Positions 3,658 through 23,567 are shown, numbered from the stretch's first letter. The stretch: DNA of 64,000 bases from Escherichia coli (GCF_013315695.1 NZ_CP054355.1); one strand, 5' to 3'. The notes: a model not told the origin generated them from the sequence alone. Numbers and translations: made by a program.

Positions 3658-3732
3658 TTCATTCTTTGATGTTTTATCATAATTAATGTTTTGTCAATAA
3701 ATATATGGAAACATATTGTTTCAGATGGGAAT

Positions 3733-4608: not shown

Positions 4609-4615
4609 ACCATGG

Positions 4616-5392
4616 ATGATGAATATTCTCCACTTCTCACAGTCGGTAAAATGGAGCAGCTGGTTTATCTGTTCTCTACTGCTTCATGGACTGATTTTCC
4701 TTGCGTTTATCTGGCGTTTTTCCGAAGTTCAGCCCGCTATGTCTCCTGCACCGGCGATCATGCTGCAATGGGCAGAAATTATAGAGGCTCCTTCTTCTCC
4801 ACTTTCGCTTCCGGTGGGAATCGCTCAACAGGAGTCCGCAGTGACAGAAGAAAAGCAACAAACTGAGGACAGACAACAACGTCCTGTCACTGAAGACAGT
4901 GATGCAACCATTGAAATAACTAGGAAGAAAAAGTCATCCGATGGAGAAAAGAAAAAGACACGTCCACCTCGTAAGATAAAGGCTCAAACCAGCGACAGCA
5001 ACCCCACAGCCGTTTCCAGTAATGCTGCACCTCAGGCTCTGGTCGAATCGTCCCGTATTGCTGCGCCTTTTAACAGTGACTCAACAAAGCGAGATAATTC
5101 TGAGGCATCTTGGGAAAGCAGAGTAAAAGGCCACCTAAACCGTTATAAACGTTACCCTGGCGATGCCAGAAAACGTGCACGAACCGGCACAGCCGTCGTG
5201 ACTTTTACCGTAAACACGGAAGGCACTATTGTCAGTAGTTTCTTGGAAATCTCTTCAGGAACCTTTTCTCTTGACCGCGAAGCTATTGCTGTTTTAGAAC
5301 GCGCTCAACCACTTCCCAAACCACCGCCTGAAATATTGGAGGGAGGATTATTTAAAGTAAAAATGCCGATTACCTTTAAGTTGAAGGAGTAA
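4616..5392 (+). CDS. cjrB: TonB-family energy transducer (CjrB-like)
   Basis: N-terminal membrane anchor, charged linker, C-terminal TonB-like domain (..GTAVVTFTVNTEGTIV...PLPKPP); 258 aa. Confidence 0.65.
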   Translation: MMNILHFSQSVKWSSWFICSLLLHGLIFLAFIWRFSEVQPAMSPAPAIMLQWAEIIEAPSSPLSLPVGIAQQESAVTEEKQQTEDRQQRPVTEDSDATIEITRKKKSSDGEKKKTRPPRKIKAQTSDSNPTAVSSNAAPQALVESSRIAAPFNSDSTKRDNSEASWESRVKGHLNRYKRYPGDARKRARTGTAVVTFTVNTEGTIVSSFLEISSGTFSLDREAIAVLERAQPLPKPPPEILEGGLFKVKMPITFKLKE

Positions 5393-5560
5393 AGGGATAA
5401 TTGGCCGTTCAAGTTCATTTAACTGAAATTTAATTTTCATTTTTATGCTGAACATTTTATCAAACTTTTCCACTGTCAAAAAAATCAAAAAGACAGTAGA
5501 ACATAATTAATAAACAAATAGTTATACTTATCTTTATTAATATTATACCCAAGGAAATTT

Positions 5561-7822
5561 ATGAACGTTATAAAACTGGCTATCGGCTCAGGCATATTAT
5601 TGCTCAGCTGCGGTGCTTACTCACAATCCATCAGTGAAAAAACTAATTCCGACAAAAAAGGAGCGGCAGAATTCAGTCCGCTCAGCGTTTCTGTCGGGAA
5701 GACGACCAGTGAGCAGGAAGCTCTCGAGAAAACAGGCGCGACCAGTTCCCGGACAACGGACAAAAACCTGCAATCACTTGACGCAACAGTGCGTAGTATG
5801 CCTGGTACTTATACTCAAATAGATCCTGGTCAGGGAGCAATCAGTGTGAATATTCGAGGCATGAGCGGATTTGGTCGTGTAAACACTATGGTCGATGGTA
5901 TTACCCAGAGTTTTTACGGAACCTCTACCTCCGGAACAACGACGCATGGTTCAACTAACAATATGGCTGGCGTACTTATAGATCCTAACTTACTGGTAGC
6001 AGTTGATGTTACACGCGGTGACAGCAGTGGCTCTGAAGGGATCAACGCCCTTGCCGGTAGTGCAAATATGCGTACTATTGGCGTTGACGATGTAATATTT
6101 AACGGTAATACATATGGCCTTCGTTCACGTTTCTCTGTCGGTAGTAATGGGCTGGGACGCAGCGGAATGATCGCCCTTGGTGGAAAAAGCGACGCTTTTA
6201 CGGATACGGGAAGCATTGGCGTTATGGCTGCTGTGAGCGGCAGTTCTGTGTACTCTAATTTCTCAAATGGTTCTGGAATTAACAGCAAAGAGTTTGGTTA
6301 TGATAAATATATGAAGCAGAACCCCAAATCCCAACTGTATAAAATGGATATCAGACCAGACGAATTTAACAGCTTCGAACTTTCCGCTCGAACCTATGAA
6401 AATAAATTTACACGTCGTGATATAACCAGTGACGACTATTACATTAAATATCATTACACCCCTTTTTCTGAATTAATTGACTTTAACGTAACGGCCAGTA
6501 CCAGTCGCGGTAATCAAAAGTATCGTGATGGCTCGCTGTATACTTTCTACAAAACCTCAGCGCAAAATCGTTCTGACGCGCTGGATATCAACAATACCAG
6601 CCGGTTCACTGTCGCGGACAATGACCTGGAGTTTATGCTGGGCAGCAAACTGATGCGTACCCGCTATGACCGGACCATTCACTCAGCGGCGGGCGACCCG
6701 AAAGCGAATCAGGAATCGATCGAGAACAATCCGTTCGCACCCTCCGGCCAGCAGGATATTTCAGCGCTGTATACCGGGCTGAAGGTTACGCGCGGCATCT
6801 GGGAGGCAGATTTCAATCTCAACTACACACGTAACAGGATCACAGGGTACAAGCCCGCCTGCGATTCACGCGTTATCTGCGTGCCACAGGGTAGCTACGA
6901 TATTGACGATAAAGAGGGTGGCTTCAACCCTTCAGTTCAGCTTTCTGCTCAGGTAACACCATGGCTTCAGCCGTTCATTGGCTACAGCAAATCCATGCGC
7001 GCCCCGAACATCCAGGAGATGTTCTTCTCTAATTCAGGAGGCGCATCCATGAACCCATTCCTGAAGCCTGAACGTGCAGAAACCTGGCAGGCGGGTTTTA
7101 ACATTGATACCAGAGATTTACTGGTCGAACAGGATGCCCTGCGCTTTAAGGCTCTGGCGTACCGCAGCAGGATCCAGAACTACATCTACAGCGAGTCTTA
7201 TCTGGTTTGTTCTGGAGGTCGTAAATGCAGTCTGCCTGAGGTGATTGGCAATGGCTGGGAGGGCATTAGCGATGAATACAGCGACAATATGTACATCTAC
7301 GTTAACTCGGCAAGCGACGTTATCGCAAAGGGCTTCGAACTGGAGATGGATTATGATGCAGGTTTTGCTTTTGGCCGACTCTCTTTCAGCCAGCAGCAAA
7401 CAGACCAGCCAACCTCCATCGCCAGCACCCACTTTGGCGCAGGGGATATAACCGAACTGCCCAGAAAATACATGACGCTGGATACTGGTGTTCGCTTCTT
7501 CGATAACGCGTTGACCCTGGGCACTATCATAAAATACACAGGCAAGGCTCGTCGCCTGTCGCCTGATTTTGAGCAGGACGAACATACCGGCGCAATAATC
7601 AAACAGGATTTGCCGCAGATCCCAACGATTATCGATCTCTATGGTACTTACGAGTACAACCGCAACCTGACACTGAAACTTTCGGTACAAAACCTGATGA
7701 ACAGAGATTATTCGGAGGCGCTGAATAAGCTCAACATGATGCCAGGTCTTGGTGACGAGACCCACCCAGCCAATTCCGCGCGTGGCAGAACATGGATATT
7801 TGGCGGGGACATTCGTTTCTGA
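5561..7822 (+). CDS. cjrC: TonB-dependent outer-membrane receptor (CjrC-like)
   Basis: 753 aa, signal peptide, C-terminal ...GGDIRF ending in aromatic residue typical of TonB-dependent receptors. Confidence 0.7.
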   Translation: MNVIKLAIGSGILLLSCGAYSQSISEKTNSDKKGAAEFSPLSVSVGKTTSEQEALEKTGATSSRTTDKNLQSLDATVRSMPGTYTQIDPGQGAISVNIRGMSGFGRVNTMVDGITQSFYGTSTSGTTTHGSTNNMAGVLIDPNLLVAVDVTRGDSSGSEGINALAGSANMRTIGVDDVIFNGNTYGLRSRFSVGSNGLGRSGMIALGGKSDAFTDTGSIGVMAAVSGSSVYSNFSNGSGINSKEFGYDKYMKQNPKSQLYKMDIRPDEFNSFELSARTYENKFTRRDITSDDYYIKYHYTPFSELIDFNVTASTSRGNQKYRDGSLYTFYKTSAQNRSDALDINNTSRFTVADNDLEFMLGSKLMRTRYDRTIHSAAGDPKANQESIENNPFAPSGQQDISALYTGLKVTRGIWEADFNLNYTRNRITGYKPACDSRVICVPQGSYDIDDKEGGFNPSVQLSAQVTPWLQPFIGYSKSMRAPNIQEMFFSNSGGASMNPFLKPERAETWQAGFNIDTRDLLVEQDALRFKALAYRSRIQNYIYSESYLVCSGGRKCSLPEVIGNGWEGISDEYSDNMYIYVNSASDVIAKGFELEMDYDAGFAFGRLSFSQQQTDQPTSIASTHFGAGDITELPRKYMTLDTGVRFFDNALTLGTIIKYTGKARRLSPDFEQDEHTGAIIKQDLPQIPTIIDLYGTYEYNRNLTLKLSVQNLMNRDYSEALNKLNMMPGLGDETHPANSARGRTWIFGGDIRF

Positions 7823-7890
7823 TGACAATTTCCGCTAGGTTCAGACAATACGTTTTCTCTCTTATGTCAATTTTATTGCAGGAACGAAAA

Positions 7891-9066
7891 ATGAATATTT
7901 TCACTTTATCCAAAGCACCGCTATACCTGTTAATTTCACTATTTTTACCCACGATGGCCATGGCTATCGATCCACCTGAACGCGAACTTTCGCGATTTGC
8001 CCTGAAAACGAATTACCTTCAGTCCCCTGATGAAGGCGTCTATGAACTGGCGTTTGATAATGCCAGTAAAAAGGTGTTTGCAGCAGTCACCGATCGTGTA
8101 AATCGTGAAGCCAATAAAGGCTATCTGTATTCGTTTAATTCAGATTCGCTGAAAGTCGAAAATAAATACACGATGCCATACCGGGCATTTTCGCTGGCGA
8201 TAAATCAGGATAAACATCAGCTCTATATCGGACACACCCAGTCAGCGTCCCTGCGTATCAGTATGTTTGACACCCCAACCGGCAAACTGGTAAGAACCAG
8301 CGACAGGTTAAGTTTTAAAGCGGCAAACGCTGCAGATTCGCGTTTTGAGCATTTTCGCCATATGGTTTACAGCCAGGATTCCGATACCCTGTTTGTGAGT
8401 TATAGCAATATGCTGAAAACGGCCGAGGGCATGAAGCCTCTGCATAAGCTGTTAATGCTCGACGGGACGACGCTTGCCTTAAAAGGCGAGGTTAAGGATG
8501 CTTACAAAGGTACAGCGTATGGTCTGACGATGGATGAAAAAACACAGAAAATCTACGTTGGCGGAAGAGATTACATCAACGAAATTGATGCGAAAAATCA
8601 GACGCTGCTGCGTACCATCCCGTTGAAAGATCCGAGACCACAAATCACAAGTGTGCAGAATCTGGCGGTGGACTCCGCTTCTGACCGTGCCTTTGTGGTG
8701 GTATTCGACCATGACGATCGTTCCGGTACAAAAGATGGACTCTATATTTTTGACTTACGCGACGGTAAACAGCTTGGCTATGTGCACACAGGAGCCGGAG
8801 CTAACGCGGTGAAATACAATCCGAAATATAACGAACTGTATGTCACCAACTTCACTAGCGGCACCATCAGCGTAGTGGATGCCACCAAATACAGCATCAC
8901 CCGTGAATTTAACATGCCGGTCTACCCAAACCAGATGGTGTTGTCGGACGATATGGATACCCTTTACATTGGCATCAAAGAAGGCTTTAACCGCGATTGG
9001 GATCCTGATGTGTTTGTGGAAGGAGCTAAAGAACGTATTCTGAGCATTGATTTGAAAAAGTCGTGA
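7891..9066 (+). CDS. senB: SenB/TieB-like secreted protein with YVTN-type beta-propeller repeats
   Basis: About 391 aa from MNIFTLSK with signal peptide; repeated KIYVGG / ELYVTNFTSG / LYIGI motifs; position after cjrC as in cjrABC-senB. Confidence 0.5.
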   Translation: MNIFTLSKAPLYLLISLFLPTMAMAIDPPERELSRFALKTNYLQSPDEGVYELAFDNASKKVFAAVTDRVNREANKGYLYSFNSDSLKVENKYTMPYRAFSLAINQDKHQLYIGHTQSASLRISMFDTPTGKLVRTSDRLSFKAANAADSRFEHFRHMVYSQDSDTLFVSYSNMLKTAEGMKPLHKLLMLDGTTLALKGEVKDAYKGTAYGLTMDEKTQKIYVGGRDYINEIDAKNQTLLRTIPLKDPRPQITSVQNLAVDSASDRAFVVVFDHDDRSGTKDGLYIFDLRDGKQLGYVHTGAGANAVKYNPKYNELYVTNFTSGTISVVDATKYSITREFNMPVYPNQMVLSDDMDTLYIGIKEGFNRDWDPDVFVEGAKERILSIDLKKS

Positions 9067-9443: not shown

Positions 9444-9588
9444 GAGAGCATGAAAAACCCTGGGGCAGTCACTGAATGAGGGACCAGCAGCGGTAAAATA
9501 ACCAGCATAATTTCTGCATGGTCGATTTTTATACCGTGACAGGCTGTTTTTTATACTTGCACCGATTCCCGGGCACACTTAGCCTGTG

Positions 9589-9865
9589 TCAGGCCGGCAT
9601 ATACCTCAGCAGACTGATATCCCGCGCGTTTTTCTTCAGCCCTGATACATTCAGCCCCGCAATGGCCCGGCGGTATACCATCCGGCCGCCGCACAGCACG
9701 CATTCGAACGGGTCACGACTCAGGAACTGTTTCACCATTTGTGCATAGCACACTTTCGCCACTGCTTCCGGTTTATCCATCCCCAGAGCACGGTACACCT
9801 GCGGCAGCTTCTCTCCACACACCCGGTTGGCAAGGAACCCGAAGTACCTCACCATCTTAAAAAAC
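9589..9865 (-). pseudogene. IS91-family-like transposase C-terminal fragment, N-terminally truncated by IS629
   Basis: ..VRYFGFLANR..CVLCGG.. resembles the C-terminal region of IS91/ISCR-type transposases; ORF abuts the IS629 end. Confidence 0.35.
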
Positions 9866-9919
9866 TGAACCGCCCCGGGAATCCTGGAGACTAAACTTCC
9901 TGAGAAAGAGGTAAACAGG

Positions 9920-10246
9920 ATGACTAAAAATACTCGTTTTTCCCCCGAAGTCCGTCAACGGGCAGTCCGTATGGTTCTGGAAAGTCAGGGCGAATATGAC
10001 TCACAATGGGCGACAATTTGTTCCATTGCCCCAAAGATTGGCTGTACACCGGAGACTCTGCGTGTCTGGGTACGCCAGCATGAGCGGAATACCGGAGGCG
10101 GTGATGGCGGGCTCACCACCGCTGAACGTCAGCGTCTGAAAGAGCTGGAACGTGAAAATCGTGAACTGCGCCGCAGTAACGATATCCTTCGCCAGGCTTC
10201 CGCTTATTTTGCGAAGGCGGAGTTCGACCGCCTCTGGAAAAAGTGA
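9920..10246 (+). CDS. IS629 transposase OrfA
   Basis: [19 protein letters not shown]... HTH/leucine-zipper OrfA of the IS3 family. Confidence 0.8.
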
Positions 10247-11133
10247 TGCCACTGCTGGATAAGCTGCGTAAGCTGTACGGGGTCGGACCGGTATGCAGTG
10301 AACTACATATTGCCCCGTCAACGTATTACCACTGTCAGCAACAGCGACATCATCCTGATAAACGCAGTGCCCGTGCGCAGCGCGATGACTGGCTGAAGAA
10401 AGAGATACTGCGCGTATACGATGGGAATCATCAGGTATACGGTGTGCGTAAAGTCTGGCGTCAGTTGTTACGGGAAGGAATCAGGGTAGCCAGATGTACA
10501 GTGGCGCGCCTCATGGCGGTTATGGGACTTGCCGGTGTTCTCCGGGGTAAAAAGGTCCGCACTACCGTCAGCCGGAAAGCCGTTGCCGCAGGCGACCGCG
10601 TAAACCGTCAGTTTGTGGCAGAACGTCCTGACCAGTTGTGGGTGGCTGATTTTACTTACGTCAGCACATGGCAGGGGGTCGTCTATGTGGCGTTCATCAT
10701 TGATGTGTTTGCCGGATACATCGTGGGGTGGCGGGTCTCATCGTCTATGGAAACGACATTCGTGTTGGATGCTCTGGAGCAGGCGTTATGGGCCCGTCGA
10801 CCGTCCGGCACGGTCCATCACAGTGATAAAGGTTCTCAGTATGTATCGCTGGCCTACACACAGCGGCTTAAGGAAGCCGGATTACTGGCATCAACAGGAA
10901 GTACAGGCGACTCGTATGACAACGCGATGGCGGAGAACATCAATGGTCTTTACAAAGCGGAGGTAATACACCGTAAGAGCTGGAAAAACCGTGCAGAAGT
11001 GGAACTGGCCACACTCACGTGGGTGGACTGGTATAACAATCGACGATTGCTGGAAAGGCTGGGCCATACTCCTCCGGCAGAAGCAGAAAAAGCTTATTAT
11101 GCTTCCATCGGAAACGATGATCTGGCAGCCTGA
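10243..11133 (+). CDS. IS629 transposase OrfB (DDE catalytic domain)
   Basis: IS3-family OrfB overlapping orfA in the -1 frame. Confidence 0.8.
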
Positions 11134-11175
11134 GTTCACAGATAAAACACTCTCCAGGAAACCCGGGGCGGTTCA

Positions 11176-11738
11176 CTTGGACTTAAATAGCTATAAACGT
11201 TTGTTGAATGGATGTATTTAGCGATAAAATCAGTATAAAAACCGTTATCAAAGAAGATGGACGTATACCCACCCAGACCATAGCTTTTAGTATCGCCATA
11301 ATAGCTGCCGCTCAGCTCTGCATTGGTACTTGTATGGGTAAATATTAAGCCAGTGTATAGCATTGCTGATTCAATTCTTATGCCTTTGTCTGCACCGAGT
11401 TGCAGGTGGTTGTATGTATTCTGATAACCGTCAGTGCCACTCCCCTGACCGAGCATATAGCGTCCCCAGACCCCGGCTTCTCCACTGTCGCGAATGTCCC
11501 CCATACGTTTATTGAGGTTATTCATTTCTGTAGAGAAAAGGCGGTAGCTGCTATTAGCAAAACTGGCCGCCGTACTGACTGCTTTTTTATCAGGCTCTGA
11601 GTTAAAGCCAATAATTGCCAGATTTGTACCGTTACCGTTATCACTAGTACCAAGTATCGGTGTTACGTTACTGAGCCCCGTTTTCTGGCTTATTGCCGAG
11701 AACATACTGAAATCGGTACCATCCGGTGCTTCAATTAG
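11176..11738 (-). pseudogene. autotransporter beta-barrel domain fragment trapped between IS629 and IS5
   Basis: Gly/Tyr/Ser-rich beta-strand-like sequence ending in aromatic residue; both ends cut by IS elements. Confidence 0.35.
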
Positions 11739-12934
<1,196 letters not shown>

Positions 12935-13569
12935 CTAAAGGCGTCTTTGGCTTCGGTCAGCGAACACTGCTGTTTTTCTTTGCAGGACGGTGAATCTTTG
13001 TAGTCCGTCATCTGCGCCAGCAGCTGATAGCTGTCGTCAAGCTGCATCTGGCTGCGCTCTTTTTCCATCGCCTGCACCGCTTTCTGGCTAAACGCCGCAG
13101 AGTCATCGGTGATCACCGGATTAAACGTTGGGTCCATCGTGCCCATTTTTTCCTGATGATGTACCGGAATGTCGCACCCAAGGAAAGCGCCGGTGATAAA
13201 GAATTGTGCCGTCGCAACGGTGCGTTGCAGACTGTTGGCATAGGTATATACCGTGTCCGGCGTCGGGCATTCGCCTGACGTGACCATCCCCAGCTCCGCC
13301 AGCCATTCTCGCATGTAGTGGCCCATATAAATTTCCAGCACACCGCCTTTCGTGGTGAGCTGCCCGCCGGGCACATCCCACTCCGGCCACTGATTCGGCG
13401 TGGACTGCTCCAGCACGCTGCCATTATTGGCCAACGGCGCGCGCAAGTTGTGTCGGCTCATCATCAACACTTGTTGCAGTTGATAACCTTCCGGCGTTGT
13501 CTGCGCTTGCGCGGCGGACGACAATAAAACAGCCCCTGCCACAGCGGCGGCGAGTATCAATTTTTTCAT
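12935..13569 (-). pseudogene. agp: glucose-1-phosphatase (histidine acid phosphatase) 5' fragment, truncated by IS5
   Basis: Signal peptide plus RHNLRAP (RHGxRxP) histidine acid phosphatase motif and Agp-like N-terminal sequence; reading frame runs into the IS5 end. Confidence 0.6.
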
Positions 13570-13690
13570 CCCTACAACCTCTTGTTGTTATCAATCCTCA
13601 TAGAGTGTGACAGAAATATGACATTTTTCCGGGAACGGTTTCGCAAAACGGGAGATTCCAGAAGATAACCGGCAGGTCAGCGTGTTCCGG

Positions 13691-14176
13691 TTACTCCGAG
13701 ATAAAAACCTCATACTTAATATTGCGGGCGCAATAAAAAGTGCCGTCCGTCAGATACAGTTCACGAAATCGCGTGTTATCAGAGATGTTGTCCAGCAGGG
13801 AACGTTCCGTATCGACAAATTCTTTTTGCACGCGGTAATGAACGGCGTTCTCCGTTTCAAAAGAGACATATTCCGTGGTGGCGTAGGGCTTATTTTTTGA
13901 TTTCACGTACACGATATATTGCACGGTACTGGCCGTCAGCCCCGTTTTCGCCGCGATCTCTTTGAGACTCAACGTCTCAGAGGCATAAAGCGCCTGAACC
14001 TGCGCTATGCGTCGGTGATTATACGCCGTCACCCGAAGGCTCAGTTTCAGCCGATAGGCCATATTCCGCACGGCGGTAATATTAGTGTGAAGCAGTTGCG
14101 CTATCTGCTCTGTCGTGAGGATGCCCGCGTTTTCCCGCAGAATCGCAAGGCTTTCGTCGTTCCAGATAAATGCCAT
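13691..14176 (-). CDS. putative DNA-binding protein with two helix-turn-helix-like segments
   Basis: 161 aa, no signal peptide; 25 bp downstream of the thioredoxin gene on the same strand. Confidence 0.4.
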   Translation of the reverse strand: MAFIWNDESLAILRENAGILTTEQIAQLLHTNITAVRNMAYRLKLSLRVTAYNHRRIAQVQALYASETLSLKEIAAKTGLTASTVQYIVYVKSKNKPYATTEYVSFETENAVHYRVQKEFVDTERSLLDNISDNTRFRELYLTDGTFYCARNIKYEVFISE

Positions 14177-14200
14177 TGGGTATCTCTCCGTACGCGTCGT

Positions 14201-14686
14201 TCATCGCGCCGCCAGGCGCGCAAACGTGGTCTCTAACTCAGACGGCTTACGCATACCCTGGTGTAGCTCCAGAACGCGTCCTTCGGAGTCAATCAGTACG
14301 GAGGTCGGCGTGCCGATCACCTGATAACGTTCCTGGGTAATGTTGAGCTGATCGCGCACCACCGGATAGGTTATCTGATGTTTTGCCAGCAGATCGTTGA
14401 TCCTGACCGTTTCAGGGTCGGTATTGACCGCCACAACCACCACTTTATCGCCCCATTTTTTGCTCAGCGCTTCCAGCGTGTCCATTTCCGCTAGGCACCC
14501 CCCGCATCCCGCAGACCAAAAATTCAGGTACACCGCCTTTCCTTGCCAGCGTTCAAGGCCTGACTCCTGGCCTTGCAGATCAAACGCCGCCAGCGCCGGG
14601 GCCGGTGCCCCGACCGCCAGCTTTTCTTCTTTACACCCGCTTATCAGGATCGCCGCCGCGAGTAACAGCACATTATGCCAGCGCAT
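14201..14686 (-). CDS. TlpA-like thiol:disulfide oxidoreductase lipoprotein
   Basis: Lipobox ILISGC; thioredoxin fold with CGGC active site (WSAGCGGC). Confidence 0.65.
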   Translation of the reverse strand: MRWHNVLLLAAAILISGCKEEKLAVGAPAPALAAFDLQGQESGLERWQGKAVYLNFWSAGCGGCLAEMDTLEALSKKWGDKVVVVAVNTDPETVRINDLLAKHQITYPVVRDQLNITQERYQVIGTPTSVLIDSEGRVLELHQGMRKPSELETTFARLAAR

Positions 14687-15368
14687 GTTGATTGGCCTCC
14701 TCACCCAGATATTTACCGTGTTGCAGCCGCAGAATACGGTCGGCAAACTGCCCAAGCGCAGGGTTGTGCGTCACCATCACAATCGTGCGCCCCTGACGAT
14801 GCAGATCGGTGAGCAGATCCAGCACCCGCTGCTCATTCTCTTCATCCAGGTTGCCCGTCGGTTCATCCGCGAAAATAACCGGCGGTTCGTTGACCAGCGC
14901 CCGGGCGATACACACACGCTGCTGCTCACCACCGGAAAGCTGGCTCGGCAGGTGCGTCACACGATGCCCAAGCCCTACCTGTTCCAGCACCTTCCTCGCC
15001 GCCGCTTCATCCACCACGCTGTGGTAATGCTGGGCGAGCATGATGTTTTCCAGCGCAGTTAAGAACGGGATCAAATGGAACTGCTGAAATACCAGGCCGA
15101 TTTTCTCGGCGCGAAAGCGACGGCGCCCCTCTTCATCCAGCGCGGCGGCATCGGTGCCATCAAGAAACACCTGCCCTTCCGTCGCCGTATCAAGGCACGT
15201 CAGAATATTCATCAGCGTGGTTTTACCAGAACCAGAAGCGCCCATAATGGCGACAAATTCACCCTGCGCAATGCGCAGATTAATGTCATCCAGGGCGGTA
15301 ACGTCACCGAACCGTTTGTATAAGTGGCGGGTTTCGATCGCCACCTGAGGGATATGCGTAACGGACAT
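14673..15368 (-). CDS. ABC transporter ATP-binding protein (MacB/LolD-type)
   Basis: Walker [10 protein letters not shown], signature LSGGEQQR, Walker [12 protein letters not shown]. Confidence 0.85.
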
Positions 15369-15372
15369 GGCG

Positions 15373-16533
15373 CTACTCTCCTTTCAGCACTTTAGCAGGC
15401 TCGACGCTTACCGCGCGTCGCACCGGAACAATCGCCGCCAGAATGGCGACCAGTAAAGACAACACCAGAGTAATGGGCAACACCGGCAGACGCAGTGAAA
15501 TGGCGGCATTAAACACCGTTAATCCCAACAGTTGCGCCAGCAAATATCCCAGCACCCAGCCGCACGCCACCGCCGCCAGCGCGATGATGCTGGTTTCCAG
15601 CAGAATTTGCCGCACGATATCGCCGTTGCTGGAACCAAGCGCTTTTTGCAGCGCAAACTCGCGCGCCCGCTCGCCGACAATCGCCATCAGCGTGGTATTC
15701 ACGCACAGCGAAGAGAGCGCCAGAATCACGATCGAGACCAGTCCCATCAGACCTTTAATTTTATCCAGCACCTGCCCTTCGGAAGCAGAGACCTTACGCA
15801 CCGGACGAATCTCCAGGTCAGGATACTGCGCCTGCAACCGGCTGGCATAGTTCTCCACCTGGCCGACATCGTTACTGACGCTCAGCAAGCCGTGGCTGAT
15901 TTTGCCCGGCTGATGCAGCCAGGCCTGCGCCACGTCGAGGCTGACGATCAGCATGTTGTCCGTCGCATCGCCAGACTCCACAATGCCTTTAATCTGCAAA
16001 TTCTTACGCTGATTGTGATCCACCAGCGTGATGCTGTCGCCCGGCTGCACGTTGAGGCGTTCCGCCAGTTTGACGCCGATCATCGCATTACGGTCGTCAA
16101 AACTAACGCCAATCCAGCTACCGGTGACCTGCCAGTACGGCACCAGTTTTTGCAGCGACTCGAACCACACGCCAACCATCACCACTTTTTCCAGCTCGGT
16201 ACGCGCCATGCCGTACAACCACGGACTGGCGCCATGCACCAGCCCCTGCGGCGCCTGATCGAGAATGCTCTGCAACTCCTGCTGCGGCATACTGGAACCG
16301 TGCCCCGGCCCGATGTAAAAATTCGCGCCGAAGGTGCGCAGTTCTTCGCTCATTTTGGTGTTAATGTCGAACCAGACGGCAGAAAGCGCCGTCACGATGG
16401 TCGCCCCCACCATCAGCGCGGCAAACACCACGCTGACCCGCTGAAAACGCAGACGCAGCGCCCGCCACACCAGCAGCCAGAGCATGGTACGTTTAGCGGC
16501 CATACAGCACCTCCACAGGATACAGCCGGGCAA
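15373..16533 (-). CDS. ABC transporter permease (FtsX/MacB-like)
   Basis: N-terminal TM, large periplasmic domain, C-terminal FtsX-type 3-TM bundle. Confidence 0.7.
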   Translation of the reverse strand: MPGCILWRCCMAAKRTMLWLLVWRALRLRFQRVSVVFAALMVGATIVTALSAVWFDINTKMSEELRTFGANFYIGPGHGSSMPQQELQSILDQAPQGLVHGASPWLYGMARTELEKVVMVGVWFESLQKLVPYWQVTGSWIGVSFDDRNAMIGVKLAERLNVQPGDSITLVDHNQRKNLQIKGIVESGDATDNMLIVSLDVAQAWLHQPGKISHGLLSVSNDVGQVENYASRLQAQYPDLEIRPVRKVSASEGQVLDKIKGLMGLVSIVILALSSLCVNTTLMAIVGERAREFALQKALGSSNGDIVRQILLETSIIALAAVACGWVLGYLLAQLLGLTVFNAAISLRLPVLPITLVLSLLVAILAAIVPVRRAVSVEPAKVLKGE

Positions 16534-17776
16534 TCCGCCGGGCCGGGAACCAGGTGCCGATCAACGCAATCAGTACCGCAATCACCAGTACGCACGGCAC
16601 CACAATCCAGGCAAAATTAAGCGGCGCGTCGAAGAGCATGACGCCAATCGCTTTCGCCAGCCCCCACCCGGCAATACATCCCAGCGCACCGCCAGCCAGC
16701 CCGCTGGACGCCGCTTCCAGGTAGAACAGCAGCATAATTTGCCACTGTCGCGCACCCAGCGCTTTCATCAAACCGATCTCTTTGGCGCGTTCCATAATGG
16801 TGCTGGTCATCAGCGAGGCGATCCCCATTGCGGAAGCCACCAGCGCCGCGACGGTAACGACCGCCATCAGCAACTGAATTTTATCGATCACCACCCCTTC
16901 GGACGCCGCGACCTGCCATACCGGGCGCACTTCCGCACCGGAAATCGCCTCTTCCAGCTGATGCGCGATCGACGACACATAGGCCGTGCAATACCAGAGG
17001 TCGTACTCTTCGGCATTGAGCGCGTCCAGGTTTTCCCGCGCGCGGCGGGACAGTTCGTTTTCCGGCACCGTCAGCGCCGAGACGCGAATCGCCTGCACTT
17101 TTCCGGGGAGCCCCAGCAGGTGCTGTACCGTGCTTAGCGGCATCACCAGTTGGTTATCTTCATCGCCGCCGCTGGAGAGGATACCGCTGACGGTGACCTG
17201 CACTGCTTCGCCTTCGGTACGTAATGTCAGCTTATCACCGGGTTTCCAGCCCATTTGCCGCGCCAGCGCGTGCCCGACTAAGGTCTGCGGCTCTGCGCCT
17301 GCGGGTTCCTGCGGCCAGTCGCCGGTCACCTGCCAGTATGGGCTGACCGTTTTCTGCCCCGTCTCATATCCCTCTTCATCAGGAATATCCACTGGCTGAC
17401 TGAAGAAAGTGCCCAGAATCCGCACTGGTTCTCCCTCCACGCTGGCTTCGCCGCCGAGCATCGGCGCAAACCCGACAATGTTGTTTCGCCAGAAGATATC
17501 TTTGATGTTCGGCAGCTCGGCTTCATCAAGAAAATCCTGACCGGAAAGCGGATTACTGCTCTCACTAAACAGCGCGGGCAGCGCAGCCTGTCCGGCGGGT
17601 TCAATCAAAATGTTCGCACCATAAGACTTCAGCTCTCTGGACATTTTGTCGCCGATATCAATGGACACCGCCAGCAGCGCCGAGATCAGGCTGGAGGCCA
17701 GAAAAACGGTGATTATCGCCAGCACTTTGCGGCGTAAATTGCGCCCCCAGGATTGTCGTAACATCCGCCACAGCAT
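16493..17776 (-). CDS. ABC transporter permease (FtsX/MacB-like), second copy
   Basis: Same architecture as the adjacent permease; overlaps it by about 40 bp. Confidence 0.7.
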   Translation of the reverse strand: MLWRMLRQSWGRNLRRKVLAIITVFLASSLISALLAVSIDIGDKMSRELKSYGANILIEPAGQAALPALFSESSNPLSGQDFLDEAELPNIKDIFWRNNIVGFAPMLGGEASVEGEPVRILGTFFSQPVDIPDEEGYETGQKTVSPYWQVTGDWPQEPAGAEPQTLVGHALARQMGWKPGDKLTLRTEGEAVQVTVSGILSSGGDEDNQLVMPLSTVQHLLGLPGKVQAIRVSALTVPENELSRRARENLDALNAEEYDLWYCTAYVSSIAHQLEEAISGAEVRPVWQVAASEGVVIDKIQLLMAVVTVAALVASAMGIASLMTSTIMERAKEIGLMKALGARQWQIMLLFYLEAASSGLAGGALGCIAGWGLAKAIGVMLFDAPLNFAWIVVPCVLVIAVLIALIGTWFPARRIARLYPVEVLYGR

Positions 17777-17778
17777 GA

Positions 17779-19158
17779 TTATTCCTCCCTCATGTCGGCA
17801 GGAACAAACTGCTCCGGCGTTTCACGGAAGCGTTCATAGTTAGCCTCTGACGAGAAGAACCAGGTCTTGCCGCCATAGCTGTATTTGTAATCGGCTGAGG
17901 TATTGGTCAACGTTGAACCATCGACCGGATCGGTCACTTTAATAGTCATGACCGTCGAGAAGTAGTTCACCCCTGTCGCCAGTTCTTTACCGGGGATCAC
18001 CAGCTCTTTTTCATCATTGTGCCAGTTTTCAATCGGCACCGGGTTACAGCCACCGGCCTTGCCGATAGACGGAATAAAAATATGCACTCCGCAGGCGACG
18101 CAGATAACCTGATTGCCCTCCATGACATAACCCTGATCGCCGCACAGCAGGCAGGCGTCGAACACCACGCCAAAACGCAGCTTGTCGGGATAGCGGTTAA
18201 TCACGAAGAAGCGCACCGCTTTGCCATCGTCCGCCACCCAGACGAAACGATGCAGTTTACCGTCACGAAGCTGTTCAACCGGCAGGCGCACCATGCCATC
18301 GCTCCCCAGCGTTACGGGCACGGCTTCAGAGAGTTGCGGCGGCTGCGAGGCCACTTTATCCCACCACAGTTGGCCTGCGATAACGACCACCGCGCAGCCG
18401 ATTGTGACCAACCACAGCCGCAAAGCGTTGCGACGCTGCGCCAGCGCCAGACGGTGAGCAATCGGTTCTTCGGTTTCCCGCGTCTGTCGAAAAGCCCGCA
18501 ACAGCGCCGGAAGCCAGCACAGCGCCAGGGCCAGCAGCAGCGCGGCTCCCGCCCAGTTATACAGCGCCGTGTTATTTGTGACTTTCGCCACGAAGCTCAG
18601 CAGTGATTTTCCCAGCGGAACAACCTGTAATTTCATCAGCAACAACAGCAGGTTGCCGCTCAGCGGCAGCCAGATCATCACCAGCAGAATCAGCGTTAAC
18701 GGCCAGTACAGGCCGCGAATACGCCGCAGCAGCATCGCGCAGAGTACGCCCGCCAGACAGAGGATCGCAAAAGCGAGAACGACGGCCGTCAGGTTTAACA
18801 GCAGGTCAGTATTCAGCACATGCGTACTGGTCAGCCCGCCCAGATTAGGGTCCAGCGCCCAATGGCGGGCAGCGCCGAAAATCAGAATCCCCTGCCACAG
18901 ATAGCGGATACGCGTTGAAGCCCACCAGAAACTGAGGACAAACAGCAGCGATACCATGACCTCCGCCCCAACCAGCAGCAGTTGTACCGGTTGGCTGCCG
19001 TGAATAAACAGTCCCGCCAGCACGCCGGCAATCAGCCCGGTCAGCAGCGTCCAGGTCAGCGGACGTAAAGAGGGAGGATCGTTTCGACTCCAGAGAACAC
19101 CGGAAAGAAGCGCAATGCAGAAAAAGACCTGTAGCGTCGTGACGAAAAAGTAACTCAT
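17779..19158 (-). CDS. polytopic membrane protein with C-terminal Cys-cluster and YHS-like domain (Cj1660-like)
   Basis: Multiple hydrophobic helices; C-terminal CLLCGD...CVACG...GGC and ..YGGKTWFFSS..ANYERF. Confidence 0.5.
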   Translation of the reverse strand: MSYFFVTTLQVFFCIALLSGVLWSRNDPPSLRPLTWTLLTGLIAGVLAGLFIHGSQPVQLLLVGAEVMVSLLFVLSFWWASTRIRYLWQGILIFGAARHWALDPNLGGLTSTHVLNTDLLLNLTAVVLAFAILCLAGVLCAMLLRRIRGLYWPLTLILLVMIWLPLSGNLLLLLMKLQVVPLGKSLLSFVAKVTNNTALYNWAGAALLLALALCWLPALLRAFRQTRETEEPIAHRLALAQRRNALRLWLVTIGCAVVVIAGQLWWDKVASQPPQLSEAVPVTLGSDGMVRLPVEQLRDGKLHRFVWVADDGKAVRFFVINRYPDKLRFGVVFDACLLCGDQGYVMEGNQVICVACGVHIFIPSIGKAGGCNPVPIENWHNDEKELVIPGKELATGVNYFSTVMTIKVTDPVDGSTLTNTSADYKYSYGGKTWFFSSEANYERFRETPEQFVPADMREE

Positions 19159-19261: not shown

Positions 19262-19792
19262 TTAGTTCAGACCGACATATTTAAACTCGTAGCTCACATC
19301 AAACGGTTTCCACCAGCGGCCTACGCCTGTTTCGCTGTCAGTATGGCGATGCATCCCGGCTTTTGACGGCGGTTCAATGTGGTAGGTCACTTTATAGTTG
19401 CCCACGCCCATCATTTTGATGTTCGCGCCATAGTGCGGGCCATCGCTGGCAACCATCGGCATGAAGGTGCCTTCCTGTTTTTCGCCCGTGTCGTTGTTGA
19501 CCAGGGTGTAGCTGATGGTCAGGTACGGGATCCATTCCCCTGCGCCAAAGCCGTTTTTATTGCCTTCTACAGCGTGGATATCCGCTTCAAGGTGAACATC
19601 GGCTTTTGCTGCCGGTAAGCCCATGCCGCGCGGTTCCATATCAATCGGTTGCAGGTAAACGGCCGCCAGCTCCATTTCATTCATGGTGACAGGCTCGCCT
19701 GCCGGGTACTCTTTAAAAGCAAACGCGGCTGGCGCAATGAAAATGCTGGCCATCACTGCGCTGGCAATCAGGGTTTTCTTCATGGTCATCAA
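19262..19792 (-). CDS. fetP: P19-family periplasmic iron-transport protein (FetP-like)
   Basis: 176 aa with signal peptide; immediately 3' of an FTR1 permease as in P19/FetP systems. Confidence 0.6.
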   Translation of the reverse strand: MMTMKKTLIASAVMASIFIAPAAFAFKEYPAGEPVTMNEMELAAVYLQPIDMEPRGMGLPAAKADVHLEADIHAVEGNKNGFGAGEWIPYLTISYTLVNNDTGEKQEGTFMPMVASDGPHYGANIKMMGVGNYKVTYHIEPPSKAGMHRHTDSETGVGRWWKPFDVSYEFKYVGLN

Positions 19793-19829: not shown

Positions 19830-21776
19830 TTATGGGTTATTTTTTATCGTCTCCCCGGGAACCGCGCTTTTGCGCCGCATCACCCACAGCGCCACCAGCG
19901 CCGCGAGCAGCAATACGACCTGCGGTAACAACGTTTCCACGTAGGGATAAATCCCCAGCCAGCTGATTTCAGGGAAGCCGTTAATCAACGTAGGCTGGAA
20001 CAGTTTGCCTTCCACCAGTTCCAGAACGCCTTTGCCCGCAAAGACGAAGGCCATCAGATACATGAAACTGCCGGTAAACATAAAGAAGGGTTTCAGCGGC
20101 AGGCGCACCACTGAGTAACGCATCACCAGCCAGGCGAGCAGCAGCACCACGCAGCCAATCACAAAACCGGCGCCAATCGCCATATGGCCGGATACCGTGT
20201 TTGCATCGCCAATCAGAGCGTAATAGAACAGCACCGTTTCCGCCCCTTCGCGGTACACCGCCAGGAAGCTGGTCAGCCATAGTCCGACCAGGGAGCCTCG
20301 CGACAGGGAATGAGACAGTTTGCCTTCCAGCCAGGCTTTCCAGTGGCGCGCTTCCACTTTGGACAGCAGCCAGTAACTCATAAAGAACAGCATCACGACG
20401 GCAATCAGCATCGTTATGCCTTCCAGCAGTTCACGGCTGGCGCCGGAGTTAGTAAACAGCATCTGGAAGATAGCGGCGGTGATGACGCTGGCGATCAGCG
20501 CCACAATTACCGACTGACGAATAAGCGGCAGCTTATCCTGATGGTTGTTTTTCACCATGTAGGCCACGATTGCCGCAACAATCAGCAGCGCTTCCAGCCC
20601 CTCGCGCACGATGATCATCAGACTATAGAGCAGCAGACTCCACTGGGTTTCTTCGCCTTCGCCCAGCATCGTCACGGCTTTTTGCAGATCCTGCGCCAGC
20701 GCGCTGGCCTCTGCATTCAGGCGCTCAACCGGCTGACCGGCCTTCATCAGACTGACCAGGCGGGTAAAATACGCCTCCAGCGTGGTTTTAAATGCCGAAT
20801 CGCGAGAGCCGATTTTGTTTTCCATGCCGCTGGCTTCGAAGCGGTCGAAGTAGGTATCCTGGATATCCAGAATCGCATTCTTCGCATCGCCGCCCTGATA
20901 GCGCGCTATCGCGTCCTGAATGCTCTGGTTAATTCCCGTCGTCACCTCAGCCCAGTCGGTGCGGTTATTTCCCTCGTCCGCCGCCGGAATGTTGTCTGCG
21001 CTTTGCGCTGCGGCAACCTGCTGATCGTCACGGGTGGTTGGCAAGCCGGGTAAGATATCCTCGATATCCTGTAGCAGCGTAGTGACCTGATAGGAGACAT
21101 CGTTGAGATGGTCAGGTTGCGCGGTCAGCGCAATCAGGGATGAGAATTGTTGGTTAATGGAGGCGGCATCTTTTGCAGAACGGTTTTGTCTGAGGGACAT
21201 CTCCATCTCAGAGTTTTTAAAGCCCTGATAGTGCGCCTGTTGAACGTGCTGACTGGCAACGCTGTAATTCCCGGCCTGATATTCAGTGACCGCCTGCGCC
21301 AGCAGATCGTCGATCGTCCTGAAACTCTCCTGCCAGTGAACGGCAATGTCGTCCCTGGACAGCGCGTTGTGCTGCTCTTCGGCCACCAGACGATGTCCGC
21401 CATCCAGCACCGGTTCCACTTCGCGCAGTGCGGCTTTCAGCCAGTCAATGCGCGCCTGGACGTCAGCGAGCGGTTTTTTCTCGCCAATCATTCGACGGAT
21501 CTCGCCGAATGCGCTCTCCATCTCGTAACTTTTGCGCGCGGAAATGTTGATGCGGATCGGCCCTTCCAGGTTCTCGAACACCTCAAAATAGGCCATTTGT
21601 ACCGTGCGGCGCGCCTCGTCGGCATGCTGTTGCTGATAAAGTTCCGCTGTTTTATCAAGACGTTGCTCGATATCTTCAATCAAAGGCGCATAATTCGTCG
21701 ACGCCCAGACACTCATGCTTATAAACAAGCCAAAGAGAGTAACCAACAAAGAGTTACGGAAGTTACGCACGTGCAC
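19830..21776 (-). CDS. fetM: FTR1-family iron permease with large N-terminal periplasmic domain (FetM-like)
   Basis: 648 aa; two RExxE motifs (REGLE, REGAE) in the C-terminal membrane domain. Confidence 0.7.
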   Translation of the reverse strand: MHVRNFRNSLLVTLFGLFISMSVWASTNYAPLIEDIEQRLDKTAELYQQQHADEARRTVQMAYFEVFENLEGPIRINISARKSYEMESAFGEIRRMIGEKKPLADVQARIDWLKAALREVEPVLDGGHRLVAEEQHNALSRDDIAVHWQESFRTIDDLLAQAVTEYQAGNYSVASQHVQQAHYQGFKNSEMEMSLRQNRSAKDAASINQQFSSLIALTAQPDHLNDVSYQVTTLLQDIEDILPGLPTTRDDQQVAAAQSADNIPAADEGNNRTDWAEVTTGINQSIQDAIARYQGGDAKNAILDIQDTYFDRFEASGMENKIGSRDSAFKTTLEAYFTRLVSLMKAGQPVERLNAEASALAQDLQKAVTMLGEGEETQWSLLLYSLMIIVREGLEALLIVAAIVAYMVKNNHQDKLPLIRQSVIVALIASVITAAIFQMLFTNSGASRELLEGITMLIAVVMLFFMSYWLLSKVEARHWKAWLEGKLSHSLSRGSLVGLWLTSFLAVYREGAETVLFYYALIGDANTVSGHMAIGAGFVIGCVVLLLAWLVMRYSVVRLPLKPFFMFTGSFMYLMAFVFAGKGVLELVEGKLFQPTLINGFPEISWLGIYPYVETLLPQVVLLLAALVALWVMRRKSAVPGETIKNNP

Positions 21777-21790
21777 ACCGCCAAAGAATG

Positions 21791-21812
21791 CAAATGATAA
21801 TTATTATCATAT
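21791..21812. promoter_or_regulatory. Fur box upstream of the fetM-like operon
   Basis: aatgataattattatcat, near-palindromic match to the Fur consensus, about 15 bp upstream of the fetM start. Confidence 0.6.
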
Positions 21813-22062
21813 CTTTTTGTCGCGTTGTACATGACCTGGATCATAAAAATGTCAGCAGACGACAAGTTATGTAAATTTATTTCATCAAATCGTGATGAAC
21901 ACACACATTATGCGTTGATAAAAGGGACGTTATCTCCCTGTTTTTCTCATGGAATTAACGGCAAGGCAGGCGCGGTAACAGAGGAATAAATCCCCCTGCC
22001 GACAGTGATATTATTCATTATCGGCAGGCAGAAATAAAACGCGTTATTGCGTACAGCAATAT

Positions 22063-22824
22063 TCAAAGATTAAGGTTATTTCGATCGCTGGCAAGACGCT
22101 GTAAGAATTGACCATATCCCTGCGGCCCCATCCAGTAGTTAATACTTTTCTCAACGCCGGTTGATGTCAACGTCGCACCGGAAATACCGTCAACGGTATA
22201 TTCATCGGCATGTTCAGGTTTATCCTGTACTATTTTCAATGCAGGATGTCCGCTGTTATCTAATAATCGTTTCCCTGGCCACTGTTTGCGCCAGTTGGCG
22301 TCTTCCACCCTAGCCCCCAGAAACGGCGTTTCCCGTTGCTGATAATAATACAGATTTCTCACCGTACGACCGTCCAGCCCCAGAGCAAGAAACGCATGCA
22401 TCATGGATTTCGCGCCCTTACCGGTAACTGGAATGATAACCTGCTGAATTTCATTATTTTTATCTTTCACAAAGAACACATCCGCCACCGTACAGCGCTG
22501 ACGAACCTGCGCTGGGTCGCGTTCAGGGGCAAGTTTTTCACACTTCTGCCGCGCGGTGTCCGCGCTGCTGCCAGCCACCAGTTCGCCGGAATCTAAATTA
22601 ACATGGCGTTGAATAATATAACGATGATAGAGCGTTTCGACTGATTTTTTATCCTGGGTCTCTGATTTCATCAGGCCCGCAGCGTGTAAAATTGCCGCCT
22701 GTTTTTCCTCCTCTGTCGGCTCCGTCATTTCTCCCTGGAACAGCATAAACCATGCCGCCGCCGCAACAAAAATAAGGACACAAAGCACCATCATTGATGC
22801 AACAATAATTTTACCCTTGCGCAT
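22063..22824 (-). CDS. orphan NqrC/RnfG-type FMN-binding domain protein, membrane-anchored
   Basis: N-terminal TM; C-terminal ..VIIPVTGKG..SMMHAFLALGLDG..YYQQRETP..DGISGATLTSTGV.. as in NqrC flavinylation region; no other nqr genes nearby. Confidence 0.6.
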   Translation of the reverse strand: MRKGKIIVASMMVLCVLIFVAAAAWFMLFQGEMTEPTEEEKQAAILHAAGLMKSETQDKKSVETLYHRYIIQRHVNLDSGELVAGSSADTARQKCEKLAPERDPAQVRQRCTVADVFFVKDKNNEIQQVIIPVTGKGAKSMMHAFLALGLDGRTVRNLYYYQQRETPFLGARVEDANWRKQWPGKRLLDNSGHPALKIVQDKPEHADEYTVDGISGATLTSTGVEKSINYWMGPQGYGQFLQRLASDRNNLNL

Positions 22825-23035
22825 TGAATTGTTATCCCTGTCAAAATGGAAATCGAAAAAATCGCCTGAACGTATCACAGACTTTCATTCAATTAAAACA
22901 GATATGCCATTATCAATTCAGGTTTGCAACGTCAGGCAGCGGTAAAAAATAATAACTGGCGTCGGTAAAAAAGCAGCAAAAATAACAGAAAACACGCTCT
23001 CCGCTCGTTTTACACATCCTTACAATGGGTTAAAA

Positions 23036-23060: not shown

Positions 23061-23567
23061 TCAAAACATGGCTGCCCGCCACAGACGTAACTTCATGCCC
23101 CAGTAGCTGGTCCAGCCGCTGGTCGTAGTTACCACCTGCCCCTTCGACACCACCACCAGCGTTGGCGTGACGCTGATTTCCCAGTTTCGTGATATCTCAC
23201 CGCCGCTATCATTCACGACGGGGAACGTCACCCTTTTACGCGATAACCAGCGGGAAACCTCCCCGTCATTACCGGAACGCAGCGCGATGGTCATGACGCT
23301 CTCCCCTTCCGACTGCAAACGGGCGACATCCGGCGTGGTGAAACGGCAGATACCGCACCAGCTCGCCCAGAAGTAGAGCAGCACCGGGCGTTCTTCACTG
23401 ATCGACGCCAGCGTTACGGTTTCCCCGTCCAGCGTATGCAGCGGCGTGCTGTCAAACATGGCCGGCATCTGCGGAGAACGCCAGACATCCAGCAGGATTA
23501 TCACGCCAGCCAGCAGAACCAGTAAGATCGCGCCTTCACGCAGCCAGCGGCGCAGTTTACTGAGCAT
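23061..23567 (-). CDS. scsD: ScsD-like membrane-anchored thioredoxin-like protein
   Basis: 168 aa, N-terminal TM, WASWCGICR CxxC motif. Confidence 0.65.
   Translation of the reverse strand: MLSKLRRWLREGAILLVLLAGVIILLDVWRSPQMPAMFDSTPLHTLDGETVTLASISEERPVLLYFWASWCGICRFTTPDVARLQSEGESVMTIALRSGNDGEVSRWLSRKRVTFPVVNDSGGEISRNWEISVTPTLVVVSKGQVVTTTSGWTSYWGMKLRLWRAAMF

Follow-up and report, generated by a model that had tools for sequence, protein, structure and literature searches.

FlsE, encoded at the 3' end of a fetMP-fls iron-uptake operon in Escherichia coli: a predicted tandem helix-turn-helix protein and candidate accessory regulator

The fetMP-flsDABCT-flsE-flsF cluster has been described on the Salmonella plasmid pUO-StVR2 (PMC7285068), where flsE was named with no function given and was reported as not conserved among homologous clusters. 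A Fur site for the cluster was reported in the same study, and a 5,566-bp fetMP-flsDA fragment with its native promoter and without flsE restored the mutant and improved iron-limited growth of plasmid-free S. Typhimurium ATCC 14028 (PMC7285068). The homologous fetMP-fetABCDEF cluster of C. jejuni ends with FetE/FetF, the second thioredoxin FetF being located at the position of flsE (PMC10783030). FlsT is a thioredoxin of the FetE/FetF type, whereas FlsE, a cytoplasmic protein that is not a thioredoxin, is encoded by an unrelated gene in the same terminal slot.

Fur-controlled secondary regulators are found inside iron-uptake loci, e.g., FecI-type sigma factors and the AraC-type PchR and YbtA. 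A regulator whose gene lies within a Fur-repressed uptake locus would be made only under iron limitation and could then act as a second tier of control. The genes of such regulators lie ahead of their target operons or are divergent from them, whereas flsE is the last cistron; they belong to the ECF-sigma or AraC families, and FlsE belongs to neither; and FlsE is dispensable for the expression of the cloned system.

In terms of fold, the closest described protein is Caulobacter crescentus GcrA (PDB 5YIU/5YIW; Pfam PF07750), an α-proteobacterial cell-cycle regulator in which R42 makes an essential base contact, while R33, N34, I37, and G38 read methylated GANTC or form the pockets for N6-methyladenine (m6A) (PMC5887438). 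The flsE gene itself has already been catalogued, and small helix-turn-helix (HTH) proteins of mobile-element origin are familiar; the new elements of the present description are the combination of tandem GcrA-like HTH domains with a β domain, and the fixation of the gene at the end of an iron-uptake operon, where it is the last cistron. The interest of flsE lies mainly in its frequency on clinical IncF plasmids and in the recurring association of its paralogues with iron loci.

The flsE gene and its operon

The window, i.e., the whole stretch of 64,000 nucleotides of E. coli DNA that was analysed, contains the following features of the cluster.

12937..13569, minus strand: 5' part of agp/flsF (histidine-type phosphatase), a RefSeq pseudogene cut by ISKpn26
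13691..14176, minus strand: flsE coding sequence, 161 aa plus stop, ATG to TAA (ORF list and RefSeq annotation of identical plasmid DNA)
14177..14200, minus strand: flsT-flsE junction, stop to start, 24 nt (sequence)
14201..14686, minus strand: flsT, TlpA-family periplasmic thioredoxin-like protein (RefSeq annotation), with homologues in many Enterobacterales
14673..19158, minus strand: flsC (ABC ATPase), flsB and flsA (FtsX permeases), flsD (FtrD-like/YHS membrane protein) (ORFs, annotation, Pfam in orthologous loci)
19262-19789, minus strand: fetP (ORFs, annotation)
19830-21716, minus strand: fetM; a longer ORF with a GTG start reaches 21776
21790..21808, minus strand: Fur box 5' of fetM, 16/19 matches to GATAATGATAATCATTATC

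The order of genes on the minus strand is an FMN_bind (nqrC-like) gene, fetM, fetP, the gene of the FtrD-like/YHS membrane protein, two FtsX permease genes, the ABC ATPase gene, the thioredoxin gene, flsE, and the 5' part of agp, and by this order the ORF matches flsE of pUO-StVR2. The initial annotation had placed here, at the 3' end of the iron-uptake operon and 25 bp after the thioredoxin gene, a 161-aa cytoplasmic protein. The reading frame is indeed present on the minus strand, runs from ATG to TAA, and comes last, directly after the thioredoxin gene, but the distance between them is 24 nt. The product lacks any hydrophobic segment (maximum Kyte-Doolittle 19-residue mean 0.74), hence the cytoplasmic localization stands. 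In RefSeq it has the entry WP_000874189.1, labelled "hypothetical protein"; a full-text search for this accession found no papers citing it.

The junction between flsT and flsE contains a Shine-Dalgarno sequence, GGAGAG, 7 nt 5' of the flsE ATG, which together with the shortness of the gap implies co-transcription. The spacing is near-constant (about 24–27 nt) in the Citrobacter loci. A scan of positions 13400-14800, covering flsT, flsE, and the start of agp, yielded no terminator-like sites, and its sole promoter-like site (14484-14455, inside flsT) is at the level of chance as estimated from shuffled sequences (one found, 0.9 expected). The flsE-agp spacer folds no better than shuffles (z-score +0.83) and forms no terminator-like fold, and searches for Rfam families and repeats found none under the flsE ORF. 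The Fur box upstream of fetM likely controls the expression of flsE, judging from sequence; in the fetM promoters of two Citrobacter loci (L003 and L004) the box matches the consensus at 16–18 of 19 positions (p <= 0.002 versus shuffles in a consensus scan, for the box of the window as well). The same promoter of the plasmid contains the GATC-containing palindrome ATGATCCAGGTCAT (21831-21844, minus strand), which has the Fur box on one side and a -35-like hexamer, TTGACA, on the other and is retained in both of these Citrobacter loci.

In comparison with eight orthologues from Citrobacter and Intestinirhabdus, flsE has a dN/dS ratio of 0.04–0.20 (dN 0.11–0.29, dS saturated), and it is thus a real gene under purifying selection. 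Its GC content is 49.4%, compared to 57–59% in the other genes of the operon, which fits a foreign origin and marks a foreign insertion.

The adjacent agp/flsF is a downstream neighbor without a functional tie to flsE. On the other side, upstream of fetM, there are an FMN_bind (NqrC-like) gene and a further gene of the thioredoxin/Redoxin type (22063-22878 and 23061-23567, minus strand), matching the arrangement of DsbD, DsbA-like, Redoxin, and FMN_bind genes in C. amalonaticus (L003). Hence the redox genes of the locus are not limited to those of the named fetMP-fls set.

Domain architecture of FlsE and comparison with GcrA

Pfam profiles match FlsE in two segments, Sigma70_r4_2 at aa 20–44 (31.1 bits, cut-off 25.7) and HTH_24 and HTH_IclR at aa 62–89 (25.0 and 24.2 bits). 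An AlphaFold2 model built with 14 family members as input (pLDDT 84.3) consists of two three-helix bundles (helices 7–16, 22–28, and 33–42, and helices 54–65, 71–78, and 82–92), separated by about six residues, and a four-stranded β domain at aa 99–160; the mutual arrangement of the domains in this model is uncertain (pTM 0.52). The two HTH-like segments suggested in the initial annotation are thus recovered both as profile matches and as modelled bundles, and a tandem HTH fold of the DNA-binding type is predicted, the first domain being of the GcrA/sigma-4 type. The domains correspond to the following positions.

14042..14164, minus strand: HTH domain 1, aa 5–45, a three-helix bundle resembling the GcrA DNA-binding domain; recognition helix at aa 33–45, ITAVRNMAYRLKL
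13901..14023, minus strand: HTH domain 2, aa 52–92 (AlphaFold2 helices, HTH_24/HTH_IclR matches, hhalign, PHROG 323)
13694..13888, minus strand: C-terminal acidic β domain, aa 97–161, with conserved F106, D122, L142, D144, G145, and R151

The second HTH domain is a diverged copy of the three-helix module of the first one (81.7% by hhalign). With pI values of 8.4 and 9.6, the HTH domains are basic; a pI of 5.1 makes the C-terminal domain acidic. When modelled by itself, the latter is predicted confidently (pLDDT 89.4), and comparison with solved structures and predicted viral structures produced no convincing match for it.

The location of flsE in the slot of C. jejuni fetF, along with the co-located redox proteins, might suggest that FlsE is a direct iron or redox sensor or a periplasmic transporter helper, standing in for the second thioredoxin. 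This is very improbable, as FlsE has neither a signal peptide nor a membrane segment, neither a thioredoxin fold nor a CXXC motif, and its only Cys is not conserved, with no conserved His; the fold is that of an HTH protein with a small β domain. In particular, the family alignment of the C-terminal domain contains no conserved Cys or His, so there is none there to sense the iron or redox state. Sequence and model leave practically no room for such a role.

The top structural match of FlsE is the DNA-binding domain of GcrA, the N-terminal three-helix domain being common to both proteins. Profile-sequence comparison of the first HTH domain with residues 1–48 of GcrA by hhalign yields a probability of 89.6% (E = 1.9e-6), and in the alignment the N-terminal Trp (W3/W5) is conserved, as is the essential base-contacting R42. 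The match was found by fold comparison only; neither the profile nor the HTH half retrieved anything significant from the PDB in sequence searches. Likewise, the Pfam GcrA profile (PF07750, gathering threshold 26.9 bits) does not match FlsE at E <= 10, and the best score within the family, that of the N-terminus of the relative P0042, is 17.6 bits, below the threshold; distant multi-repeat relatives score 34–54 bits, above it.

Despite the shared fold, the two proteins differ substantially. FlsE contains two GcrA-type domains in tandem, unlike C. crescentus GcrA, and it lacks both the long linker of GcrA and the domain interacting with region 2 of sigma-70, aa 97–161 forming an unrelated β domain. 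GcrA is an α-proteobacterial protein, whereas FlsE is found in mobile DNA of γ-Proteobacteria. Finally, R33, N34, I37, and G38 of the m6A pocket correspond to I33, T34, R37, and N38 in FlsE.

These differences bear upon the possibility that FlsE acts in the GcrA style, riding RNA polymerase or reading N6-methyladenine in Dam GATC sites and thereby coupling promoter methylation to expression. Besides the structural match itself, such a mechanism would be in line with a P2-like prophage in which homologues of both FlsE modules flank a gene of a Dam-type methyltransferase, and with one conserved GATC within the conserved palindrome of the fetM promoter. Nevertheless, a single GATC in about 350 bp is the chance expectation, and the site is absent from all four promoter regions examined in clade B (described below). 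As the sigma-70-binding domain is missing, the readout residues are replaced, and GATC is not a feature of promoters in the family, we consider a GcrA-like mechanism quite unlikely, and the idea of a Dam/GATC reader was dropped.

Other assignments were considered and rejected. The Sigma70_r4_2 similarity is limited to HTH stretches of about 25 residues, region 2 is absent, and the NCBIfam sigma70-ECF model TIGR02937 scores 15.8 bits against a cut-off of 42.9, so FlsE is not a sigma-70 or ECF factor. More generally, a search of NCBIfam gave nothing near any cut-off. The matches to MarR-, IclR-, and AsnC-type regulators, including HTH_AsnC at 23.1 bits, comprise only an HTH core of 18–28 residues, and the model has no wing. 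PADLOC yields only a generic 24-residue HTH match (mad1), insufficient for assignment to a defence system. The bipartite HTH domains of the Tc3 transposase (1U78) and of Myb R2R3 may serve as an analogy for the binding mode only, as identity to FlsE is 9–15%, no sequence relationship is detectable, and the context of flsE is neither transposase-like nor eukaryotic. FlsE is therefore outside the GcrA family, the sigma factors, and the winged-helix families, while sharing the DNA-binding fold of GcrA; its place is among the PHROG 323 proteins with HTH repeats.

The FlsE family and its prophage relatives

We define the FlsE family as proteins of 160–180 aa consisting of tandem GcrA-like HTH domains and the C-terminal β domain. 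In the alignments its invariant positions are W5, R37-N38, R42, T78-G79-L80, D144-G145, and R151, all of which are present in the protein encoded in the window. The full three-module architecture is represented by approximately ten cluster representatives at E <= 1e-30 among 1.84 billion proteins, and these originate only from Citrobacter, Intestinirhabdus, Salmonella enterica, or plasmids; all are named "hypothetical". The remaining matches (about 280) contain from two to eight copies of the FlsE HTH unit, several of them scoring above the Pfam GcrA threshold, and some also carry a fused module of the LAGLIDADG or HNH type.

The family is divided into two clades. Relatives of FlsE in clade A, P0041 and P0043, are 45–55% identical to it. 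The gene of P0041 (Salmonella) is located between a FepA-family receptor gene, which is preceded by a 16/19 Fur box, and genes of a TonB-dependent receptor and a YncE-like propeller, and the gene of P0043 precedes, by about 600 bp, a gene with 70% identity to SenB/TieB of the window, which in turn is followed by perC. The Fur boxes before the free-standing P0041 and P0043 genes are not significant (10/19 in the former; 14/19, p about 0.06, in the latter). The contexts of clade A are of the iron-uptake type in all three cases (3/3); this is suggestive, although the pattern was noticed post hoc and in few loci.

Clade B (L015-L018, L007, L029, and L030; 41–44% identity), found in Salmonella and C. 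braakii, has a different organization. Its members are always divergently paired with a gene of a CaiF/GrlA-family regulator (Pfam score 110 bits), the intergenic regions being 350–390 bp long with 27–30% GC, and the neighboring genes are usually those of chemoreceptors and fimbriae, with no iron genes. C. braakii has two such pairs, one of them adjacent to genes of an NRPS and of two ABC exporters of the MsbA type. None of the 5,426 complete genomes of E. coli contains a match to the loci of P0041, P0042, and P0043.

Both modules of FlsE have relatives in phages. The HTH half (aa 5–89) matches PHROG 323, labelled "transcriptional regulator, D5-like" in the database, with E = 2.2e-11 (4.5e-17 for the relative P0035), and the β domain matches PHROG 20193, labelled "unknown function", with E = 8.9e-9. 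The nearest outgroup of FlsE, P0048 (E = 1e-20 in a profile search), comes from a P2-like prophage, where its gene is flanked by cox and gpA. In another P2-like prophage, from Salmonella (L019, 7468-9816), three consecutive early-region genes encode a protein consisting of the β domain only (P0160), a methyltransferase of the Dam type, and a 185-aa protein with tandem HTH domains that is homologous to aa 3–88 of FlsE (hhalign 94%); they are a split counterpart of FlsE arranged around the methylase gene.

The prophage tandem-HTH proteins (PHROG 323, P0048, L019) are small and uncharacterised, and their HTH repeat is homologous to that of FlsE. They have two to four or more repeats and no fused β domain, whereas FlsE has the fusion, and their genes are situated between cox and gpA, whereas flsE is a part of a metabolic operon. 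Since the closest relatives of both modules are found in P2-like early regions, FlsE seems to combine, fused in one protein, two modules from the early regions of prophages.

The same relatives are the starting point of the main rival to a regulatory role, i.e., that flsE is a hitchhiker: an early prophage gene stranded as the terminal gene of the operon and either kept for some function other than iron uptake or merely carried along. Such a gene could be engaged in interplay with phages or plasmids or in general counter-silencing of foreign DNA, or simply reflect recent plasmid spread. The existence of clade-B relatives in islands without iron genes, the low GC content of flsE, and its dispensability in the cloned system are in favor of this explanation; the iron-uptake-type neighborhoods of the two other members of clade A speak against it. 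We regard it as possible, albeit clearly less than probable.

Distribution of flsE and its proposed role

The DNA of the flsE region is present at 99–100% identity in 833 of the 5,426 complete E. coli genomes, where it is mostly plasmid-borne. A tblastn search of PLSDB identified flsE on 842 plasmids, 703 of them conjugative. These plasmids are of the IncF type and come mostly from Escherichia, chiefly clinical E. coli, with some from Klebsiella, Shigella, and Salmonella.

Orthologues were sought in one genome per species, which resulted in 11 loci with synteny mapped by tblastn. In eight species-level genomes of Citrobacter and Intestinirhabdus, including C. amalonaticus, C. youngae, several unnamed Citrobacter species, and Intestinirhabdus alba, flsE is located directly 3' of flsT at a distance of about 25 nt. 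The downstream flank is less uniform. In most Citrobacter it consists of TauE, ArsR-like, agp, yccJ, and wrbA genes, in Citrobacter sp. MNAZ 1397 (L004-L006) of an HTH_17/PIN toxin-antitoxin pair and gntP, and in I. alba (L027) of neither. Among the loci found, there were none with flsE beside agp and without the fet operon. As flsE follows flsT even where agp is not nearby, it belongs to the fet operon and not to agp; the alternative noted in the initial annotation, that the gene is part of the agp neighborhood in all donor genomes, is contradicted by L004-L006 and L027.

The plasmid copy differs from most Citrobacter chromosomes by a clean deficit of approximately 1.6 kb between flsE and agp (13570-13690 in the window versus 10490-12184 in L003), where a pair of genes encoding a TauE-family permease and a 235-aa ArsR-like HTH_5 protein is missing. 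The DNA identity between the plasmid and Citrobacter is 71–75% across flsE and 84–85% across agp, which points to an unsampled Citrobacter-like lineage as the donor.

Several fet operons do not contain flsE. In K. oxytoca, the thioredoxin gene is followed by a convergent aldolase gene, and in Y. pestis by a gene of a 103-aa cytochrome c. The gene is also absent from a Salmonella copy of the operon, in which the FlsD, permease, and ATPase proteins are 98–99% identical to those of the window. Hence the second thioredoxin that the initial annotation expected at this position in homologous operons is a feature of C. jejuni only, and not of Y. pestis, K. oxytoca, or the Salmonella copy. In that copy (S. 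enterica L032/L033, 1-6486), FlsD and the permeases are 99%, the ATPase 98%, and the thioredoxin only 91% identical; homology ends exactly at the stop codon of the thioredoxin gene, and IS and HTH_XRE genes follow. This suggests, on sequence grounds, that a boundary left by recombination or by an IS lies within flsT or immediately 3' of it. Overall, flsE is outside the conserved core of the FetMP-Fls and FetMP-FetABCDEF clusters.

Two further sequences were set aside. A locus of Enterobacter sp. EA-1 (L031, CP025776.1), at first taken for a deeply divergent fet operon with flsE, belongs to the P0029-type lineage, its assembly being full of frameshifts, and it is not counted as support for an ancient linkage; the frameshifts span the whole fet operon, lower the apparent identities, and could mislead estimates of synteny and divergence. 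A single 261-aa call from an ENA metagenome contig (P0001), joining thioredoxin and FlsE (Pfam Redoxin plus Sigma70_r4_2), is probably a frameshift or a read-through on a short contig and not a real fusion.

The distribution data support both sides of the hitchhiker question. Most fet operons, including the near-identical Salmonella copy, lack flsE, and FlsE evolves faster than any other protein of the cluster (63–81% identity compared to 73–84% for FlsT and 95–98% for the ATPase). At the same time, the position of flsE and its spacing after flsT are retained in at least eight species with saturated dS and low dN/dS, and there are no mobile-element genes flanking flsE in Citrobacter. The absences, the functioning of the cloned system without flsE, and the islands in which relatives occur without iron genes all weaken the suggestion that FlsE is a regulator specific for this locus. 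In addition, since fetMP-flsDA works without flsE, FlsE cannot be an obligatory activator.

Having weighed these data, we propose, with roughly even confidence, that FlsE is an accessory DNA-binding regulator of prophage ancestry, encoded by the terminal cistron of fetMP-fls and induced by iron starvation. That FlsE binds DNA in a sequence-specific manner is inferred from its fold and is probable; that it acts on the fet locus is a tentative suggestion, and a rather doubtful one. In this scenario, an early-region gene of a P2-like prophage would have given rise to a soluble cytoplasmic DNA-binding protein, and the gene would have been fixed as the terminal cistron of fetMP-fls in a Citrobacter-like lineage and then carried onto IncF plasmids together with the operon. 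FlsE would be translated from the Fur-repressed operon mRNA, and its level would consequently rise under iron starvation. The two basic HTH domains may place their recognition helices in neighboring major grooves of a bipartite site, while the C-terminal β domain may mediate self-association or contacts with a partner. FlsE would then modulate transcription as a non-essential accessory regulator. Candidate targets are the AT-rich promoters of fetM and of the FMN_bind (nqrC-like) gene or other horizontally acquired iron-uptake loci.

The cluster that bears flsE has been shown to improve iron-limited growth and replication in macrophages. If FlsE is indeed an iron-starvation-induced DNA-binding regulator, it would represent a plasmid-borne factor able to rewire the transcription of the host or the plasmid in infection, and would, for the first time, open HTH repeats of the GcrA fold to functional study outside α-Proteobacteria. 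If it is only a hitchhiker, it is an ordinary conserved hypothetical protein with an improved domain description.

A broader and much more speculative reading, to which we assign little weight, is that the FlsE family constitutes an unrecognised class of prophage-derived GcrA-fold transcription factors that have been repeatedly attached to horizontally acquired iron-uptake modules of Enterobacteriaceae. These modules would include fetMP-fls, pairs of a TonB-dependent receptor and a YncE/SenB-type propeller, and possibly NRPS clusters, and the class would include the sister clade paired with CaiF/GrlA-type regulators. If so, FlsE on the widespread IncF plasmids of E. coli ST131-type lineages would be an iron-starvation-induced regulator that could cross-talk with the neighboring cjrABC-senB or with chromosomal genes.

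The cjrABC-senB genes form a second iron-related locus of the window (3700-9066, plus strand), with cjrC at 5561-7822 and senB/tieB at 7891-9066, and encode a ChaN-like lipoprotein, a TonB-like protein, a TonB-dependent receptor, and a YncE-like propeller. The distance from this locus to flsE is 4.6 kb, with IS debris between them. The region 9500-12940 is a mosaic of IS remnants that comprises an IS91 fragment, an IS3-family element (9920-11133), a fragment of an autotransporter β-barrel (11136-11753, minus strand), and ISKpn26/IS5 (11807-12787), the element responsible for the truncation of agp at about 12937.
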